A stretch of DNA of 64,000 nt from positions 15,314,001 through 15,378,000 of the forward strand of contig NW_026889771.1 of NCBI RefSeq assembly GCF_033153115.1, written 5' to 3'. Positions 1 to 12,200 of this stretch are shown in pieces (the stretch's first letter is position 1; the number at the start of each line of letters is the position of its first letter). Made by a program: the position numbers and the translations under genes. The notes beneath the pieces were generated by a model, which saw only the letters and a program-made list of their open reading frames with translations, was not told the origin of the DNA and made no database searches. The stretch comes from Saccostrea echinata (Eukaryota).

Positions 1-3000
1 TGTCAATTGAAAGTCAAGAGGTCAAAGCCTGATACAGCCAACATCAATTGCCAAACAAATGCTCAGGAAAACATGCAATAAGTCTGAATCTTACCGTACA
101 TTCTGCTTCATGTCTGCAGTTGAATGGGAGAGGGACTATTCCTCACTTCCGGATGTTGACCGGCCTTGATCTTTCTTCCTTGTTCCTCTTCTGAGCCCCT
201 GAAAACATAAAACTGATAGAAGATTAGTAGAAATTCAAAACAATGCAGCTAAATGACAGAAATTCAAGGAAAAATATTATTACAACTAAATAAGTTGAAA
301 AAATCAGTTAGCAAACAATGACAGTTAAGTCAGGAAGAGGAATGTAGGGGAAAGGGGAGGAGGGTGGTTAGTTACGTTAGAATAGGGAGGGGGAGGGGAC
401 AAAGAAAAGAGAGAAAAGGGAAAAAGTCAAAAAATACTTCCATATTAGCTTCCATGGCTGTTGATGTGGCTCCTGGTGATGTTCCTTCTGAACTGCATCA
501 GCATCTCTACATCCTGTCAATTGAAAGTCAAGAGGTCAAAGCCTGGTAAAGCAAACATCAATTGCCAAACAAATGCTCAGGAAAACATGCAATAAGTCTG
601 AATCTTACCGTACATTCTGCTTCATGTCTGCGGTTGAATGGGAGAGGGACTATTCCTCACTTCAGGATGTTGGTTGGCCCTGGTAATCCTTCCTTGTTCC
701 TCTTCTAAGCCCCTGAAAATATACAACTGATAGAAGATTAGTAGAAATTCAAAACAATGCAGCTAAATGACAGAAATTCAAGGAAAAATATTATTACAAC
801 AAAATAAGTTGAAAAATCAGTTAGCAAACAATGACAGTTAAGTCAGGAGGAGGAATGTGGGGGAAAGGGGAGGAGGGTGGTTAGCTATGTTAGAATAGGG
901 AGGGGGAGAGGACAAAGAAAAGAGAGAGAAGGGAAAAAATCAAAAAATACTTCCATATAAGCTTCCATGGCTGTTGATGTGGCTCCTGGTGATGTTCCTT
1001 CTGAACTGCATCAGCATCTCTGCATCCTGTCAATTGAAAGTCAAGAGGTCAAAGCCTGATACAGCCAACATCAATTGCCAAACAAATGCTCAGGAAAACA
1101 TGCAATAAGTCTGAATCTTACCGTACATTCTGCTTCATGTCTGCAGTTGAATGGGAGAGGGACTATTCCTCACTTCCGGATGTTGACCGGCCTTGATCTT
1201 TCTTCCTTGTTCCTCTTCAGAGCCCCTGAAAACATAAAACTGATAGAAGATTAGTAGAAATTCAAAACAATGCAGCTAAATGACAGAAATTCAAGTAAAA
1301 ATATTATTACAACTAAATAAGTTGAAAAAATCAGTTAGCAAACAATGACAGTTAAGTCAGGAAGAGGAATGTGGGGGAAAGGGGAGGAGGGTGGTTAGTT
1401 ATGTTAGAATAGGGAGGGGGAGGGGACAAAGAAAAGAGAGAGAAGGGAAAAAGTCAAAAAATACTTCCATATTAGCTTCCATGGCTGTTGATGTGGCTCC
1501 TGGTGATGTTCCTTCTGAACTGCATCAGCATCTCTTCATCCTGTCAATTGAAAGTCAAGAGGTCAAAGCCTGGTAAAGCAAACATTAATTGCCAAACAAA
1601 TGCTCAGGAAAACATGCAATAAGTCTGAATCTTACCGTACATTCTGCTTCATGTCTGCGGTTGAATGGGAGAGGGACTATTCCTCACTTCAGGATGTTGG
1701 TTGGCCCTGGTAATCCTTCCTTGTTCCTCTTCTAAGCCCCTGAAAATATACAACTGATAGAAGATTAGTAGAAATTCAAAACAATGCAGCTAAATGACAG
1801 AAATTCAAGGAAAAATATTATTACAACTAAATAAGTTGAAAAATCAGTTAGCAAACAATGACAGTTAAGTCAGGAGGAGGAATGTGGGGGAAAGGGGAGG
1901 AGGGTGGTTAGCTATGTTAGAATAGGGAGGGGGAGAGGACAAAGAAAAGAGAGAAAAGGGAAAAAATCAAAAAATACTTCCATATAAGCTTCCATGGCTG
2001 TTGATGTGGCTCCTGGTGATGTTCCTTCTGAACTGCATCAGCATCTCTGCATCCTGTCAATTGAAAGTCAAGAGGTCAAAGCCTGATACAGCCAACATCA
2101 ATTGCCAAACAAATGCTCAGGAAAACATGCAATAAGTCTGAATCTTACCGTACATTCTGCTTCATGTCTGCAGTTGAATGGGAGAGGGACTATTCCTCAC
2201 TTCCGGATGTTGACCGGCCTTGATCTTTCTTCCTTGTTCCTCTTCTGAGCCCCTGAAAACATAAAACTGATAGAAGATTAGTAGAAATTCAAAACAATGC
2301 AGCTAAATGACAGAAATTCAAGTAAAAATATTATTACAACTAAATAAGTTGAAAAAATCAGTTAGCAAACAATGACAGTTAAGTCAGGAAGAGGAATGTA
2401 GGGGAAAGGGGAGGAGGGTGGTTAGTTATGTTAGAATAGGGAGGGGGAGGGGACAAAGAAAAGAGAGAGAAGGGAAAAAGTCAAAAAATACTTCCATATT
2501 AGCTTCCATGGCTGTTGATGTGGCTCCTGGTGATGTTCCTTCTGAACTGCATCAGCATCTCTACATCCTGTCAATTGAAAGTCAAGAGGTCAAAGCCTGG
2601 TAAAGCAAACATCAATTGCCAAACAAATGCTCAGGAAAACATGCAATAAGTCTGAATCTTACCGTACATTCTGCTTCATGTCTGCGGTTGAATGGGAGAG
2701 GGACTATTCCTCACTTCAGGATGTTGGTTGGCCCTGGTAATCCTTCCTTGTTCCTCTTCTAAGCCCCTGAAAATATACAACTGATAGAAGATTAGTAGAA
2801 ATTCAAAACAATGCAGCTAAATGACAGAAATTCAAGGAAAAATATTATTACAACTAAATAAGTTGAAAAAATCAGTTAGCAAACAATGACAGTTAAGTCA
2901 GGAAGAGGAATGTAGGGGAAAGGGGAGGAGGGTGGTTAGTTACGTTAGAATAGGGAGGGGGAGGGGACAAAGAAAAGAGAGAAAAGGGAAAAAGTCAAAA

Positions 3001-6000
3001 AATACTTCCATATTAGCTTCCATGGCTGTTGATGTGGCTCCTGGTGATGTTCCTTCTGAACTGCATCAGCATCTCTACATCCTGTCAATTGAAAGTCAAG
3101 AGGTCAAAGCCTGGTAAAGCAAACATCAATTGCCAAACAAATGCTCAGGAAAACATGCAATAAGTCTGAATCTTACCGTACATTCTGCTTCATGTCTGCG
3201 GTTGAATGGGAGAGGGACTATTCCTCACTTCAGGATGTTGGTTGGCCCTGGTAATCCTTCCTTGTTCCTCTTCTAAGCCCCTGAAAATATACAACTGATA
3301 GAAGATTAGTAGAAATTCAAAACAATGCAGCTAAATGACAAAAATTCAAGGAAAAATATTATTACAACTAAATAAGTTGAAAAAATCAGTTAGCAAACAA
3401 TGACAGTTAAGTCAGGAAGAGGAATGTAGGGGAAAGGGGAGGAGGGTGGTTAGTTATGTTAGAATAGGGAGGGGGAGGGGACAAAGAAAAGAGAGAGAAG
3501 GGAAAAAGTCAAAAAATACTTCCATATAAGCTTCCATGGCTGTTGATGTGGCTCCTGGTGATGTTCCTTCTGAACTGCATCAGCATCTCTGCATCCTGTC
3601 AATTGGAAGTCAAGAGGTCAAAGCCTGATACAGCCAACATCAATTGCCAAACAAATGCTCAGGAAAACATGCAATAAGTCTGAATCTTACCGTACATTCT
3701 GCTTCATGTCTGCAGTTGAATGGGAGAGGGACTATTCCTCACTTCCGGATGCTGACCGGCCTTGATCTTTCTTCCTTGTTCCTCTTCTGAGCCCCTGAAA
3801 ACATAAAACTGATAGAAGATTAGTAGAAATTCAAAACAATGCAGCTAAATGACAGAAATTCAAGTAAAAATATTATTACAACTAAATAAGTTGAAAAAAT
3901 CAGTTAGCAAACAATGACAGTTAAGTCAGGAAGAGGAATGTAGGGGAAAGGGGAGGAGGGTGGTTAGTTATGTTAGAATAGGGAGGGGGAGGGGACAAAG
4001 AAAAGAGAGAGAAGGGAAAAAGTCAAAAAATACTTCCATATTAGCTTCCATGGCTGTTGATGTGGCTCCTGGTGATGTTCCTTCTGAACTGCATCAGCAT
4101 CTCTACATCCTGTCAATTGAAAGTCAAGAGGTCAAAGCCTGGTAAAGCAAACATCAATTGCCAAACAAATGCTCAGGAAAACATGCAATAAGTCTGAATC
4201 TTACCGTACATTCTGCTTCATGTCTGCGGTTGAATGGGAGAGGGACTATTCCTCACTTCAGGATGTTGGTTGGCCCTGGTAATCCTTCCTTGTTCCTCTT
4301 CTAAGCCCCTGAAAATATACAACTGATAGAAGATTAGTAGAAATTCAAAACAATGCAGCTAAATGACAGAAATTCAAGGAAAAATATTATTACAACTAAA
4401 TAAGTTGAAAAAATCAGTTAGCAAACAATGACAGTTAAGTCAGGAAGAGGAATGTAGGGGAAAGGGGAGGAGGGTGGTTAGTTACGTTAGAATAGGGAGG
4501 GGGAGGGGACAAAGAAAAGAGAGAAAAGGGAAAAAGTCAAAAAATACTTCCATATTAGCTTCCATGGCTGTTGATGTGGCTCCTGGTGATGTTCCTTCTG
4601 AACTGCATCAGCATCTCTACATCCTGTCAATTGAAAGTCAAGAGGTCAAAGCCTGGTAAAGCAAACATCAATTGCCAAACAAATGCTCAGGAAAACATGC
4701 AATAAGTCTGAATCTTACCGTACATTCTGCTTCATGTCTGCGGTTGAATGGGAGAGGGACTATTCCTCACTTCAGGATGTTGGTTGGCCCTGGTAATCCT
4801 TCCTTGTTCCTCTTCTAAGCCCCTGAAAATATACAACTGATAGAAGATTAGTAGAAATTCAAAACAATGCAGCTAAATGACAGAAATTCAAGGAAAAATA
4901 TTATTACAACTAAATAAGTTGAAAAATCAGTTAGCAAACAATGACAGTTAAGTCAGGAGGAGGAATGTGGGGGAAAGGGGAGGAGGGTGGTTAGCTATGT
5001 TAGAATAGGGAGGGGGAGAGGACAAAGAAAAGAGAGAGAAGGGAAAAAATCAAAAAATACTTCCATATAAGCTTCCATGGCTGTTGATGTGGCTCCTGGT
5101 GATGTTCCTTCTGAACTGCATCAACATCTCTGCATCATGTCAATTGAAAGTCAAGAGGTCAAAGCCTGATACAGCCAACATCAATTGCCAAACAAATGCT
5201 CAGGAAAACATGCAATAAGTCTGAATCTTACCGTACATTCTGCTTCATGTCTGCAGTTGAATGGGAGAGGGACTATTCCTCACTTCCGGATGTTGACCGG
5301 CCTTGATCTTTCTTCCTTGTTCCTCTTCTGAGCCCCTGAAAACATAAAACTGATAGAAGATTAGTAGAAATTCAAAACAATGCAGCTAAATGACAGAAAT
5401 TCAAGTAAAAATATTATTACAACTAAATAAGTTGAAAAAATCAGTTAGCAAACAATGACAGTTAAGTCAGGAAGAGGAATGTAGGGGAAAGGGGAGGAGG
5501 GTGGTTAGTTATGTTAGAATAGGGAGGGGGAGGGGACAAAGAAAAGAGAGAGAAGGGAAAAAGTCAAAAAATACTTCCATATTAGCTTCCATGGCTGTTG
5601 ATGTGGCTCCTGGTGATGTTCCTTCTGAACTGCATCAGCATCTCTGCATCCTGTCAATTGAAAGTCAAGAGGTCAAAGCCTGGTAAAGCAAACATCAATT
5701 GCCAAACAAATGCTCAGGAAAACATGCAATAAGTCTGAATCTTACCGTACATTCTGCTTCATGTCTGCGGTTGAATGGGAGAGGGACTAATTCCTCACTT
5801 CAGGATGTTGGTTGGCCCTGGTAATCCTTCCTTGTTCCTCTTCTAAGCCCCTGAAAATATACAACTGATAGAAGATTAGTAGAAATTCAAAACAATGCAG
5901 CTAAATGACAGAAATTCAAGGAAAAATATTATTACAACAAAATAAGTTGAAAAATCAGTTAGCAAACAATGACAGTTAAGTCAGGAGGAGGAATGTGGGG

Positions 6001-6720
6001 GAAAGGGGAGGAGGGTGGCTAGCTATGTTAGGATAGGGAGGGGGAGAGGACAAAGAAAAGAGAGAGAAGGGAGAAAATCAAAAAATACTTCCATATAAGC
6101 TTCCATGGCTTTTGATGTGGCTCCTGGAGATGTTCCTTCTGAACTGCATCAGCATCTCTGCATCCTGTCAATTGAAAGTCAAGAGGTCAAAGCCTGGTAA
6201 AGCAAACAAATGCTCAGGAAAACATGCAACAAGTCAGAATCTTACCGTACATTCTGCTTCATGTCTGCAGTTGAATGGGAGAGGGACTATTCCTCACTTC
6301 AGGATGTTGACCGGCCTTGATCTTTCTTCCTTGTTCCTCTTCTGAGCCCCTGAAAATATACAACTGATAGACGATTAGTAGAAATTCAAAACAATGCAGC
6401 TAAATGACAGAAATTCAAGGAAAAATATTATTACAACAAAATAAGTTGAAAAATCAGTTAGCAAACAATGACAGTTAAGTCAGGAAGAGGAATGTGGGGG
6501 AAAGGGGAGGAGGGTGGTTAGTTATGTTAGAATATGCAGGGGGAGAGGACAAAGAAAAGAGAGAGAAGGAAAAAAATCAAAAAATACTTCCATATAAGCT
6601 TCCATGGCTGTTGATGTGGCTCCTGGTGATATTCCTTCTGAACTGCCTCAGCATCTCTGCGTCCTGTCAATTGAAGGTCAAGAAGTCAAGACCTGATACA
6701 GCCAACATCAACTGGCAAGC
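1..6720. repeat. Tandem array of ~514-bp units (about 13 copies, runs off the left edge) with two subtypes
   Basis: The same blocks recur every 513-514 bp (ORF-track hits at 364, 1391, 2418, 2932, 3960, 4474, 5501). Subtype X carries ccggccttgatctttc/ctgagcccc and subtype Y carries ttggccctggtaatcc/ctaagcccc. Confidence 0.97.
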
Positions 6721-7499
6721 AAAATATCACGAAAAGATGCAAGAAAGTTGGAATCATACAGTGCTGAGGAACACAAAGGCAATTCTACAAAAATTTAAAA
6801 TAGGCGCACACCCCTTTTGCATCGAAGAAAATTCCAGTGCATAAACAAATCACATCCCTGTCTCATTTCAATTCATTTGTCATACTCACAAATTACAATG
6901 TGGAGACAGAAAATTTCTTAAATAGGATGGAAATGCTCTGCTCAATAAATACCAGAGTATAGCAAAGGGCACAGCAAATGAAAACTTTTCAGGTCTTTAT
7001 AAAAACTATATCATATCAGGGCTTACTTTTAAAACAGGACCAAAATAGTTTGTATATATGCATAGATGTTCACTATACAATGTTCAAATGAACTGGAACT
7101 CAGGTGAGGCATGCTTCCAAATATTAAATTCATATATAAGGTATTAGCAAGGTAGACCCCCCACCTCGTAAAAAAATCAGATACAGTAAAGTATTTATGA
7201 ACAGAAACTACGGTACAGTACTTGTTTACCTATAAAATGTTGAAAATACATGCAAATAAAGAGTTCAAATAATTCATTTTGACATAAAATGTTACAAATA
7301 CTTGCAATGATTACAAATTAAGTAATACATTGTAGACATGAATTTATTTTATCTTAGATCTAAGGCAGATCACAGTAACTGAATATATTTATATCACAGT
7401 ATTAGAACTCTATACAGTGTAGTGTGCAATTTATAGAAGTGAAAAACTAGAAATATTTCCATAGGAATGAATGTCCCAACCAGGGTTTGTTAGTGCAAC

Positions 7500-8300
7500 A
7501 CAAAAATATGCATTAGTGTATGAAGTTTGAGTAGAATACCTAAAAAAAAGTTGTTTTTTTTTAACTGAACTTAATATTCGATAAATAGTAAAGTCAAAGG
7601 TCATTGGGAAGGTCAGGGTAAAAAAAAAATAAAGTGAGGTCAAGGTCAAAGGGAAGGCCAAGGCTAATTTTTGATGCAATTCAAAAGCATTCACCAAAAT
7701 GTTTTAGTGTATGAAGTTTGATTAAAATATCTAGACTTGTTTCTTTGAATCTTTGCTAAAATTTTTTGAAAACTTGAGAAAAGTTAGGGTCAAAGGTCAA
7801 ATTTCATCAAAAAATATTGATTAAGTCAAAAATATTTATCAACATGTATCAGCATATGAAATTTTATAAAAATATCTTAAAAGTTCTTTGAAGCTTAGCT
7901 AAAAACAAATTTTAGAAAGCTGAAATCAAGGTCAATGGAAAGTTCAAGATAAAAAAAATGTTGGAATAGTTGAATAGCTCTCATCAGTGTGTATCAGAAT
8001 ATATGGGTTTAATAAAAATATCTTTGATAGTTTTTTTTCTGAAACTAAGCTAACATACATTTTTTATGTGAGGTCAAGGTAAAAGGAAAGGTCAAGGTCA
8101 AAAAAATGTTGATGCAGTTGAATAACGCATCCATATTTGTATATGTATCAGCATATGAATTTGATAAAAATAACCTGAATAGTTTCTTTGAAATTGAGTT
8201 AATTGCAAAGTGAGATGGAAGGACAAATGGAAGGACAGAAGTTGGATATGACAAATACTATATGTCTGGGCCATATTCATGGTGAGGAATGAAAATATCA
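7500..8300. repeat. Degenerate Helentron/HINE-like element with ~150-bp internal repeats
   Basis: Recurring ggtcaaggtcaaa, gtgtatgaagtttga and gtatcagcatatgaa motifs at roughly 150-190 bp spacing. Confidence 0.5.
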
Positions 8301-8869
8301 ATGATACAGACACGGTTATATTTAATTTGTACAAAACCTCAGTTTCTTGGTTCAAGGGAAATGTATAAACAAAGCACAATCTGTCAGGGTTTTTTTTCAC
8401 TGCATCATTGTATTTTACCTGTGTCTTGGTAAATCTCTCTGCAACTATAATTGCTTCTGTTTCCAGTGATTCCGCATCTAAAAGAAATGGTTAAAATGCA
8501 CATTGCATATCAGCACTGATTTGTCATAACTTACATAAATTTATGCAAGTTAAATGCCTAGCTATACATTTTTGACAAAATATTTTGTGACGCTTAGGAG
8601 ACAGAGGGTGTCTGTCACTGAGTATCAAGAGTTTTTCATGATTAATCCCACCCTGGAATTCATCAGGGCAGCTGAGCTTCAGTTAACCCTGGGGTCTGAA
8701 GAATTTTACAACTTTGGTAGAGGATTAGCTCTTCATTATAATTATAAAATTTATCGATTTACCTTCAAAGTTTCCATAATGAAAATGGATCTGAACCCTG
8801 AACCAAGAGGCAGTGAATTTTAGAGTACAGTGTTGGTAAAGGATAGGTTTATTATGCAAACAATTTAAA

Positions 8870-9446
8870 CAGGTCTAGGGGGGTACGTTTTTAGAGGATA
8901 GGCAAAATTCCAAATGGCGGACAAATTATCGGAATCCCCATGTATGGAAAATTGAAATGCAATGTGCGATAGCTTATCCTCCGATTTTGAAGGATAACAA
9001 AGGTAATTTTCAAACTCCTTGTGCCAACCTTCAGTGGAAAAGTGCATGCACCAGAGTACATTTAAATAAAAGTTCATAAAGTATCGATTGTATGTGTAGA
9101 TCTGAGATTCTATGTCTAGATCTTTTACAATTTTTTTTTTAAGTTGGCACTTTTTGCACTCTCTTATTACAGTAAATTTCTTTTGCTTTATTATCATTTT
9201 TTCACCCTGTAATATTGGTCGGAGATTACTTTACTTTATCAATGTTATGTAGTTATCTTTTATTTTCTTTGGTTGAGATATCACTGTATGGTTTATAAAT
9301 CATTTTAAAAAAATGCAAGGATTGTTATTTGTTTGATTAAGGGTTAACTGCCCTTTGTTTTGAAAAGTCTGGTAGGTAGCAAGACCCCTATCCTCCGTTT
9401 TCTGAGGGTAAACCCTATCTTCCAAACATGGAGGTGCCTAGACCTG
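8870..9446. mobile_element. MITE with CAGGTCTAGG terminal inverted repeats and 5-bp TSD (TTAAA)
   Basis: caggtctagg at 8870 and cctagacctg ending at 9446; ttaaa on both flanks; partial subterminal match (gaggatagg / cctatcttc). Confidence 0.75.
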
Positions 9447-12200
9447 TTAAACGCTTCACGCCAAGTGAAAAGACAATTTTAAAAGGCCTAACCCTTCCCC
9501 CCCCCCCCCCCCATCTCCCAGTAATACATGCTTTCCATACTGGTAAATGACCATCTTAAGCCAACACTGAAGCCAAAACCATTGGCCTAGGAGTCATGAA
9601 TTTTATCATTTTGGTAGCAGAACTAATCTTGCCAACAGTTTGACTGCTTGGTTTCCAGCAGAAAAAATATTTTGCATTTCATTAGCCTCACTATGGATCT
9701 GGTGTCTCTACCCTTGTGTCATTAAATTAACAATTCCTGTAAACACTGGTAAAGGATTCACTGCATAATATAACCATGCCAACAAATTTCCACATTGAAG
9801 TCAAGCGGTAAAGTAGATTATTAAATATTTTCAATGTATAACATATATGCATTTTCACTACAATAGAAAAGTAACAGAGTAAATCTATTTATGTTACCCG
9901 ATTCACCCATTGGCGATAAGCAGTCTTTTTCCACAGCTGAAAAATACTTTGTCTTAAACACTATCAATTCATGCATCTGACTCCAACAAATAATTTTTCG
10001 TAGAAGACTTTATCAGAAAATTCAACAATCTCCTGTGATCGAATTTGCTGTTCGCGCCACATGTCAGAATTTCAAACTCATAATTTCGATCCCGATGCAA
10101 ATTTGACGGAATATAAACAAATAAAAAATATTAATTCCTTTGCCCCTCCAATTATAGAAAATTTCTGCAATAACCTAGAATATGTTCTGCGTCTAAACAG
10201 GATACAAATATTCATGCCTCAAGTCCGTCTTGCTATATAAGGGCCGTCACTAAGTTTCTGGGATGAGGTGCGGGGAGTATCTGAGCTAGACTTTTTTTTT
10301 TGAATGGGTACCATTTTGATGGATTCTGGTGCATTTTTAGACATTTTTTTTACATTTTAAATTAATGAAATATAGCAGTATACCTTAATTAAAACAGAAA
10401 AATGATTAGTCTATTTAGTCTCAAAAATCGTTTTTTTTTTCTAAAAGGATCAGATTGTTAACGATTTTCTTTTAAGAAACTTAACCAATTCGCAAGTATT
10501 ATTCATTAAAACGTTTACCTTAATGTTTGTTTATCTGGAGGCTCCTGTGAAACATTTTCCATACAAAATTGTATATCTGCAGCGTTAAGTTGCCTGGTAT
10601 TGTTTGTTACTGCTTTAATCAGTTAATTGCGAATTCAGTACTGAATAATGGTCAAAGACCTTGACTGAGCTCACGTGATTGAAGTACTATTCATTATCCA
10701 CTGTGGTCATTAGAGTGTAAAATAGTAAAATAAAGAGTACACAAACAAATATTTTGTTTTATATAGTGAATTTCAACTGAAATTCAGATTTACCCTCGTA
10801 TTATTATGTTTAATTTGTCGGTATTTACGCGGTAGTAGTATGTATACGTAAACGAATCTTCCAGGTATTTTAATAAATTACTTTAAAATAGGCCTACACT
10901 AAAAATTACAAAATTTATAGCCAAAGAATGACCTTAAACCTCCATAGAAAACAAGGACACATACAGTGTAGTAAATTGGTATGGAAAGTCACAGATATGA
11001 AGGAAAACGACTTGTCCTATAATTATCCCGAAATGAAACAAAACAAAACAAAACATGCGCTGATCCAGAAAGAGGTCCAGACCCCCATGGAATTTTGGAG
11101 TTATATCTGAAGAAAATTGACTCGGAAAGTGGCTTGTCCTACACTCCCATCTCCACCCCCAATTTAGTTGTTTTAGGTTTGGGCACGTTGTTTATATTTT
11201 TATATTTCCATATTTTCCAAAGAAAATTCCGGTGTATTGTTGTTATCCTGTTCCGTTCGTCCGCCACACTACCCCCTTCCTCAAACTACTCCTACATTTG
11301 ACATGTTTTAAGCAGTAACCAACCCATCCTTTGGAATGATTTGTGTTGCCCTGTACAGGTGCAAAAGGATGAGGAAATTTTCATGTTCACCCTTGGAAAT
11401 ATATTCACATTTTGGAATATTATTTCAAATGTCCTCTAGATGTGCAATAAGGTTTTGGAATTTAATTCATTTTCACCCGAAAAGGGGGGTGGGTTGCGGA
11501 ACAAAATACATTTTTCTCCTGAACTCCTCTTACATTTTTTGCAGTAGCCTATTCATTTTTTGGAATATGTGGTGTCTGTAGATGTGCACTAAGGTGTTGA
11601 AATTTTCATTTTGACACGAGGGGTGGGGGGGAGTGAGGTGTTAAAAAAAATGCGATTTTTTTTTCTACAAAAAACTTGATCCCTATACTCTTCTGATATT
11701 TTTCGTAGTACCCCATTCATAATTTGAAATATGTATTGATGACAAGTATGAAGCAAGGTAAAATTAACAAATTTTAGTAACATTTATCATCAGAGATTTT
11801 TTATACTCTAATGCTTACTGATCAGGAGAGCTAAGGACTATTAAATTTGGTTCTAAGAGGAATACTGCTCCCTACTCTTTTCATGCAAAACATAGTGAAA
11901 AATACCCAAAAAATCCCTCCAAGTATCAATGATTTTGATAACACAAAAATTGTTCTACACAAAAGAAATTAACTTCAATAACTTGAAACATTTAATGATG
12001 GTTCATAATATTTATTAAATGATCTGTACATTCAAGAGATGCAATTTCTGTATAAAGCATAAAATCCTTATGAATTTGATATCATATCCTTGGTGACACA
12101 CAATGTTGATGGTGAGATTCAAAGATGTTACAGCTGCACAAACGTCCCTAGACTTGGTGAAAATGACAAAATTGTTGATATTGATAAAAAGTCCCATATA

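Follow-up and report, generated by a model that had tools for sequence, protein, structure and literature searches.

Dispersed spliced genes built around amplified exon-intron modules in Saccostrea echinata are probably non-coding and under selection

We analysed a stretch of 64,000 nucleotides from Saccostrea echinata (contig NW_026889771.1; G000:C22:15314001-15378000, here called the window), in which a minus-strand tandem array of 514-bp units begins. A preliminary description of this DNA, made from the sequence alone, had parsed each unit as a two-exon module of a spliced transcript. We found that the locus belongs to a family of some 20 duplicated genes with several exons, in which every gene has a separate, homogenised array of modules with two or three exons, and that these loci are probably spliced non-coding genes under selection. 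The proposal of a spliced minus-strand gene with an amplified module was upheld, and the product is most likely a non-coding RNA; the amplified part is internal, and four more exons follow the array. Spliced long non-coding RNAs (lncRNAs) built from repeats are a known kind, while about 20 genes that each amplify an exon-intron module under splice-site constraint are new; the literature that we searched, mostly without subscription papers and without supplements, held no description of such a family.

Results

An amplified exon-intron module shared by about 20 loci

The two-exon parse (76, 239, 104 and 95 nt for exon A, intron 1, exon B and the short second intron) was reproduced in the 13 units of the window, with few exceptions. 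On the minus strand, exon A measures 76 nt in 13 of 13 units, intron 1 is 238-239 nt long and starts with the donor GTATTT in all of them, exon B has 104 nt in 12 (105 nt in unit 2), and the short intron has 95 nt in 11 of 12 cases, the first being 81 nt. The period is 513-514, with a first unit of 499. Every exon A acceptor had been read as intact; that of unit 4 (position 5137) is broken and reads CAT, not CAG. The array extends past the window edge and comprises 48 units over 24.1 kb. Because it continues this far, about 95 junctions, rather than the 24 or so first counted, follow the stop of the open reading frame (ORF) discussed below. The array escaped Tandem Repeats Finder, whose period limit of 500 is too short for it, and no polyadenylation signal was found in 24,025 nt of the array. 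On its 3' side, a diverged terminal copy of the module is followed by four exon-like segments, D1-D4. Units within this array differ by 3.0% on average. As a separate observation, two unit variants are interleaved in ab and abb patterns along its 47 B exons, which constitutes an incipient higher-order repeat.

The exons upstream of the array had been regarded as unique. The stretch 9880-10320, which covers the promoter and first exon, has 25 matches in the genome on five contigs, and the stretch 8400-8500 has 14. From genome stretches we assembled 22 loci for comparison, dispersed in both orientations. The exon order common to the family is E1, E2, array, D1-D4, and the array sits between E1 and the D exons in 20 of the 22 loci (C10:9.01 has about one diverged unit, C10:5.96 none in the part examined). 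The last 19 bases of exon A together with the donor occur in 767 exact genome copies, against 0 for the control. The arrays that were read fully hold 48, 91, 27, 26 and 8 units, those read at their ends only have incomplete unit counts, and array length differs about tenfold among loci.

Two unit types were recognised, one of about 514 bp with two exons in 8 loci and one of about 690 bp with three exons (A, B' and C) in 12, and the unit alignment indicates that exon B of the window is B' joined to C by a deletion. The weight first placed on the exon pair being a multiple of 3 does not carry over to the family: the commoner, three-exon module has 260 nt of exon, and two of the seven parsed two-exon loci have 176 and 178 nt. 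Exon A keeps its length of 76 nt in 19 of 19 loci, with 3.0% of cells differing.

Divergence among units amounts to 0.5-5.5% inside an array and to 5.7-17.9% from locus to locus (mean 11.4%), the latter counted without C54:35.79, a near-identical twin, perhaps an allele, of C16:4.13. Trees of the 5' flank, the unit and the 3' flank are star-like, and at least three changes of unit type on well-supported branches of both flank trees point to exchange of units between loci. Homogenised arrays of this sort fit an ordinary satellite, but the gene architecture and the splice constraint described below do not. We also noticed an array at G000:C22:11.41-11.46 Mb that mixes 690-bp and 514-bp units, possibly an exchange in progress.

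Splice sites are constrained in exons that show no coding constraint

Across loci, splice AG/GT dinucleotides departed from the majority in 6 of 577 cells, whereas comparison cells changed far more often, in flanking introns (2106/17372, 12.1%), in exons (1126/16183, 7.0%) and at all consensus AG/GT (745/9014, 8.3%). Relative to other AG/GT of these alignments, the rate of change at splice dinucleotides was thus lower by a factor of about eight. When only single-copy exons were counted, 2 of 325 cells had changed (3 by direct reading). The donor GT was present in 145 of 145 exon-by-locus cases from nine exon types. Three loci (C54:35.79, C10:9.01 and C10:5.96) are excluded from the whole splice count; in addition, C10:9.18 is excluded at exon C and C22:14.01 at D2 and D3. 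Cells share ancestry and are not fully independent, and units have been exchanged between loci, so that Fisher p-values overstate the case; the star-like trees imply that most lineages are nearly independent.

The family exons are without coding constraint. Pooled over seven exons, the ratio of nonsynonymous to synonymous substitution rates (dN/dS) did not differ from 1 in any frame: the most open one gave 0.90, the two others 1.04 and 0.87. Stops and frameshifts are scattered through the exons across loci, and E1 keeps no frame.

These properties recall known classes of non-coding genes. SNORD115/116 and Bsr are non-coding hosts made of tandem exon-intron units with conserved splice sites, and the present family likewise combines tandem exon-intron units with conserved splice sites; it differs from them in that no small nucleolar RNA (snoRNA) or microRNA (miRNA) is detectable in its introns. 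PNCTR, HSATIII and hsr-omega are architectural RNAs built from repeats, and the absence of coding constraint that belongs to repeat-built architectural lncRNAs is found in this family too (dN/dS 0.87-1.04).

Two points weigh against the loci being spliced genes under selection. The divergent C10:9.01, which lies outside the splice count, lost the exon A donor GT, and relatives outside this genome were not found; a metagenome scan for the exon A end gave 0 matches.

The short intron is removed and intron 1 appears mostly retained

Assembled contigs of three runs (X1-X3) were compared with window positions 4700-11000; the three runs contain 6% of the sampled words. The joint of exon B to the next exon A (B>A) was found in all three runs, at a depth of 7.3 in X1, 272 and 229 in X2, and 25 and 42 in X3; in X1 the joint is exact, with CT..AC ends, and in X2 and X3 the joints are variant forms. 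No B>A junction exists as intron-less DNA in the genome. As neither junction type is present as genome DNA, the joints are splices, and the short intron is removed.

By contrast with B>A, the A>B joint, also proposed for checking, was seen once, at a depth of 4.5 and with a 22-nt side. X2 record 14, at depth 272, contains a spliced B>A joint and extends 49 nt into intron 1, and X3 records 21 and 23 run across the intron 1 acceptor and donor. On these contigs of one study, there is a weak indication that intron 1 is mostly retained. A ladder of 180-nt steps had been expected; since A>B is scarce and the 239-nt intron is mostly contiguous with the exons, this ladder is probably a minor one. The upstream junctions 9898>8477 and 8419>6663 were not among the 15 of 23 joints listed.

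The contigs speak less clearly in several respects. They come from one study with at most two samples, their status as RNA is guessed, and depth is summed over about 770 units, the deepest joints being variant forms from other family members. X2 record 16 (depth 14) crosses an unspliced short-intron boundary, E1 and E2 are almost without cover in X2 and X3, and contigs that contain introns could be nascent RNA or DNA.

Intron 1 carries conserved CTAAC motifs

Within the module, variation is lowest at the end of exon A and in the 3' half of intron 1. Intron 1 contains CTAAC three times, against 0.25 expected in shuffles (p 0.0008), and the first two copies, spaced by 9 nt, are arranged as the core and half-site of a Quaking-type element; this pair is identical in two deep paralogous lineages. 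Among 19 arrays, the three upstream CTAAC changed in 3 of 285 cells, compared with 90 of 1938 cells in the 3' half of the intron, its conserved part. The terminal paralogue and C10:9.01, with just 75% and 80% identity elsewhere, also agree with the upstream motifs at 15 of 15 positions (p 0.013 and 0.033), the test of CTAAC conservation having been chosen after the alignment was seen. The two largest fully read arrays contain about 190-360 CTAAY, and a gene with a STAR dimerisation domain is present in the genome, with two equal-scoring matches (C38 and C44).

Other observations lessen the case for binding of STAR proteins. The motifs are mostly CUAAC or ACUAAC and not the UACUAAC of Gomafu, with one UACUAAU per unit. 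In this array, 21 of the 47 units have GCTAAC as their second motif, a form expected to bind STAR proteins less well, and the medoid unit shows no enrichment of ACTAAY alone (p 0.10). Complete identity across all three lineages is also seen for 46 of 201 intron 5-mers.

The consensus of intron 1 is AG-free (p 0.017), and it resembles the distant-branch-point introns of PMC1431707 in its branch-point motifs, its pyrimidine tract and the lack of AG up to the acceptor. Unlike in those introns, no maintained AG exclusion zone was found: every one of the 47 introns in this array has between 1 and 3 AGs inside it. Gains of AG across loci (10 seen, 8.6 expected) were not suppressed, so the pair is not being maintained as a distant branch point, which is a further point against the functional reading of the motifs.

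Discussion

A tentative scaffold mechanism and its known counterparts

Considering the repeated motifs, the RNAs may bind proteins of the STAR family or branch-point proteins multivalently and act as scaffolds, a mechanism that we put forward as plausible but short of probable. Transcription would start at the conserved upstream blocks described below and run through the array, which lacks polyadenylation signals. The strong short introns are removed, as observed in the contigs, and splicing would stall at intron 1 through its weak donor and bound STAR proteins. The product would be a long RNA with tens to hundreds of CUAAC elements and pyrimidine tracts, which would stay nuclear and bind Quaking/How or SF1 many times, either as a scaffold or as a sink. 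Here, we infer both the full-length transcripts and the effect on splicing.

Gomafu/MIAT carries UACUAAC repeats that bind SF1 (PMC3116199) and is also bound by QKI (PMC11483029). Gomafu/MIAT is, and the present family probably is, made of spliced non-coding RNA with conserved repeats of a motif that resembles a branch point, but Gomafu/MIAT is a single vertebrate gene with 3-7 exonic UACUAAC (PMC3116199), while the family occupies about 20 loci, has its motifs in a repeated weak intron and shares no demonstrated sequence homology with it; the tandem UACUAAC repeats that define Gomafu/MIAT are not found in it. QKI represses splicing where ACUAAC elements occur in tandem at a spacing of 9 nt, for example in RAI14 intron 10, which shares with intron 1 two CUAAC at this distance and poor splicing (PMC11483029). 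In RAI14 the acceptor belongs to a coding exon, and the two elements stand 34 and 43 nt away from it (PMC11483029), whereas the family pair lies at 172 and 181 nt, in a non-coding repeat, and is accompanied by a further, ordinary branch point at 29 nt. Chicken LL2R (bioRxiv 10.64898/2026.03.19.712899) is an array transcribed from one strand, as the family arrays probably are, and resembles them in splice signals, incomplete splicing and the lack of polyadenylation signals. The predicted donors of LL2R are unbalanced, and its transcription comes from a retrotransposon by read-through (bioRxiv 10.64898/2026.03.19.712899), unlike the family, in which balanced exon-intron units belong to genes with their own first and terminal exons at about 20 loci. 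Under this mechanism, the family would work like Gomafu/MIAT or LL2R while being a member of neither.

An extension of the scaffold mechanism, which we regard as speculative and rather unlikely, would be that about 20 architectural lncRNA genes set the free level of a Quaking/SF1-type regulator by copy number, the capacity of nuclear bodies following array length, with about 770 retained-intron modules in all, each serving as a cassette for STAR binding, that expanded independently locus by locus and were swapped between loci. If the scaffold mechanism holds, the family would be a multi-gene mollusc counterpart of Gomafu-type RNAs, tunable by copy number, and would offer natural length variants (8 to 91 units among fully read arrays) and a single short motif to mutate. 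Even without it, these loci are a clean case of non-coding genes with measurable splicing constraint, and of satellite arrays that arose repeatedly from exon-intron modules inside genes. Repeat catalogues would mask such arrays as satellite DNA and gene finders would drop them, though their splice sites are under selection.

Alternative explanations

The loci might instead be spliced non-coding genes whose splicing matters in another way, as precursors of PIWI-interacting RNAs (piRNAs) or other small RNAs, or through a local chromatin role of transcription, with CTAAC being no more than splicing signals in a regulated intron and arrays growing by unequal crossing over. We consider this possible but not likely. 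Splice-site constraint without coding constraint is typical of host or precursor genes, the terminal exons carry other tandem repeats, and oysters have stage-specific piRNA clusters (PMC6128900), which are, however, not described as spliced exon-repeat clusters in the available part of that paper. A small-RNA function is also disfavoured by what the introns lack: Rfam gave nothing near threshold in window positions 5100-11000, no pre-miRNA-like hairpin was found (the best 100-nt window reached -8.6 kcal/mol), and inspection revealed neither C/D boxes in the right order nor H/ACA hairpins.

It is unlikely that the loci are a decaying or selfish duplicated block, that is, dead gene copies with a satellite-like array that are passively transcribed and spliced and have no present function. 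Such decay would fit the stops and frameshifts dispersed through the exons, the insertions, the absence of E2 from several loci, the tenfold range of array length, the ragged block ends and the poor contig cover of the unique exons. It does not account for splice dinucleotides being changed about eightfold less than other AG/GT, single-copy exons included, for exons being better kept than introns (7.0% versus 12.1%), or for two upstream blocks that persist where the flanks have diverged.

A coding function is very improbable, whether as a chain of 57-codon micropeptides, as selenocysteine read-through into a repetitive protein or as the 89-aa microprotein suggested earlier. We recovered the 89-aa ORF and the stop that ends it within the first B exon, but a microprotein is not supported: the open 79-nt E1 segment that it needs is found in 1 of 18 parsed loci, so that the ORF is specific to this copy, E2 was seen in 15 of 22 loci, and dN/dS is about 1. 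Each fully spliced unit holds a 57-codon ORF that ends in TGA, with an in-frame ATG two codons later, and one unit has TGA at a cysteine codon. This frame is intact in 41 of 46 unit-to-unit joins of the window locus and in 5 of 7 parsed two-exon loci; among the 12 three-exon loci it survives in only 3, of which two are near-identical, and by our own estimate its survival is about what neutral decay at this divergence would leave. Its dN/dS is 1.5 in exon B and 0.9 in exon A, it requires the rare A>B splice, and the 260-nt module breaks read-through.

Repetitive selenoproteins of the mollusc SELENOP type have a conserved in-frame UGA, coding constraint and a selenocysteine insertion sequence (SECIS). 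We dropped the selenocysteine or stop-restart reading for the present family on the grounds of a dN/dS of about 1, a frame that is not kept in the 260-nt module and the absence of a SECIS match in the three 3' regions searched. Weak searches also gave no protein relatives for the single exons D4, B' and D3 extended to 40 codons.

A large non-autonomous transposon (Helitron-like or cut-and-paste) carrying the gene would fit the dispersed copies in both orientations on five contigs and their star-like tree, but copies share no terminus and, in the part examined, the aligned 5' ends of 11 loci have no common end motif, which makes it a most improbable explanation. The 5' ends of the block are scattered about 1 to 3.2 kb before E1 and the 3' ends about 5.5 to 12 kb after D4, and ends that are ragged on both sides without a shared terminus fit segmental duplication better than transposition. 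The boundary at 11798 was considered as a transposon end and rejected, as its sharp edge is specific to this copy.

Conserved upstream blocks and origin of the family

A TATA-like motif had been pointed out near 10235, yet this word varies between loci, and the two blocks at 10101-10083 and 10058-10050 are nearly invariant (Table 1). Six further matches to the block 1 pattern lie in unrelated sequence, five of them in one other repeat family. The loci were selected by block 1, which is also present in an unrelated repeat, so its function as a promoter can only be presumed. Block 2, GGCGCGAAC, resembles an E2F site.

Exons D1, D3, D4, B' and C are weakly alike (D1 matches D3), and the gene therefore seems to have been built from older exon duplications. 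A coding ancestor of the family is possible; no intact coding parent was found, a six-frame genome search with exon D3 giving family members only (20/20).

Several minor observations concern the duplicated DNA. Exon D4 leads into a further tandem repeat, of about 71 bp, that also varies widely in length among loci (here G000:C22:15288750-15289390). The loci at G000:C16:4130632 and G000:C54:35791803 are near-identical, flanks included, and these twin loci together with the two equal-scoring STAR matches (C38 and C44) suggest that some haplotypes were kept twice in the assembly. Another block, of at least 13-21 kb, carries the same 19-base motif as the upstream block of the family. Four copies of this other block are about 99.8% identical, three of them lying close to contig ends, and a fifth copy is older (G000:C12:9483, C13:6886135, C28:12514401, C54:195163 and C13:876443).

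Table 1. Features of the window, with positions counted from its first nucleotide
Feature	Position	Strand	Description
Tandem array, 514-bp units	1-6760	-	13 units inside the window, 48 in total, reaching G000:C22:15296184
95-nt intron, example	5651-5745	-	GTAAGA...GACAG; efficiently spliced; B>A joints in 3/3 runs
Exon B, unit 1	6246-6349	-	104 nt; aligning the 514-bp with the 690-bp unit shows the 5' part of ancestral B' fused to the 3' end portion of exon C
Intron 1, unit 1	6350-6587	-	238 nt, with CTAAC motifs and pyrimidine tracts; RNA-like contigs mostly retain it
Ordinary branch-point-like CTAAT	6374-6378	-	29 nt before acceptor
Third upstream CTAAC	6457-6461	-	112 nt before acceptor
Paired CTAAC, 9 nt apart	6517-6530	-	Candidate bipartite element of Quaking/SF1 type; in the family consensus, 181 and 172 nt upstream of the acceptor
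Exon A, unit 1	6588-6663	-	76 nt, weak donor GTATTT; best-kept exon in the family
Exon E2	8419-8477	-	59 nt; present in 15/22 loci; AG 11/12, GT 12/12
Exon E1, probable first exon	9898-10060	-	Donor at 9897; 5' limit provisional; GT in 18/18 loci
Conserved upstream block 2	10050-10058	-	GGCGCGAAC; invariant in 21 aligned loci, including three with barely aligning flanks
Conserved upstream block 1	10083-10101	-	Candidate promoter element; exact pattern at 27 genome places, 21 in family loci, control 0
Outer end of duplicated block, this copy	11790-11798	.	Other copies reach 0.5-1.5 kb further
REX1-B (Pfam)	21060-21425	-	Ordinary neighbour
GWT1 (Pfam)	24331-26003	+	Ordinary neighbour
Thiolase C-terminal (Pfam)	44403-45218	+	Ordinary neighbour
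DUF3429 (Pfam)	48726-49595	-	Ordinary neighbour

Neighbouring genes

Besides the ordinary neighbours in Table 1, an acidic, lysine-rich multi-exon gene was recognised on the minus strand at 12200-14010; two of its open stretches gave no Pfam match. It seems to end about 400 nt before the duplicated block, and read-through from it into the family member is possible.

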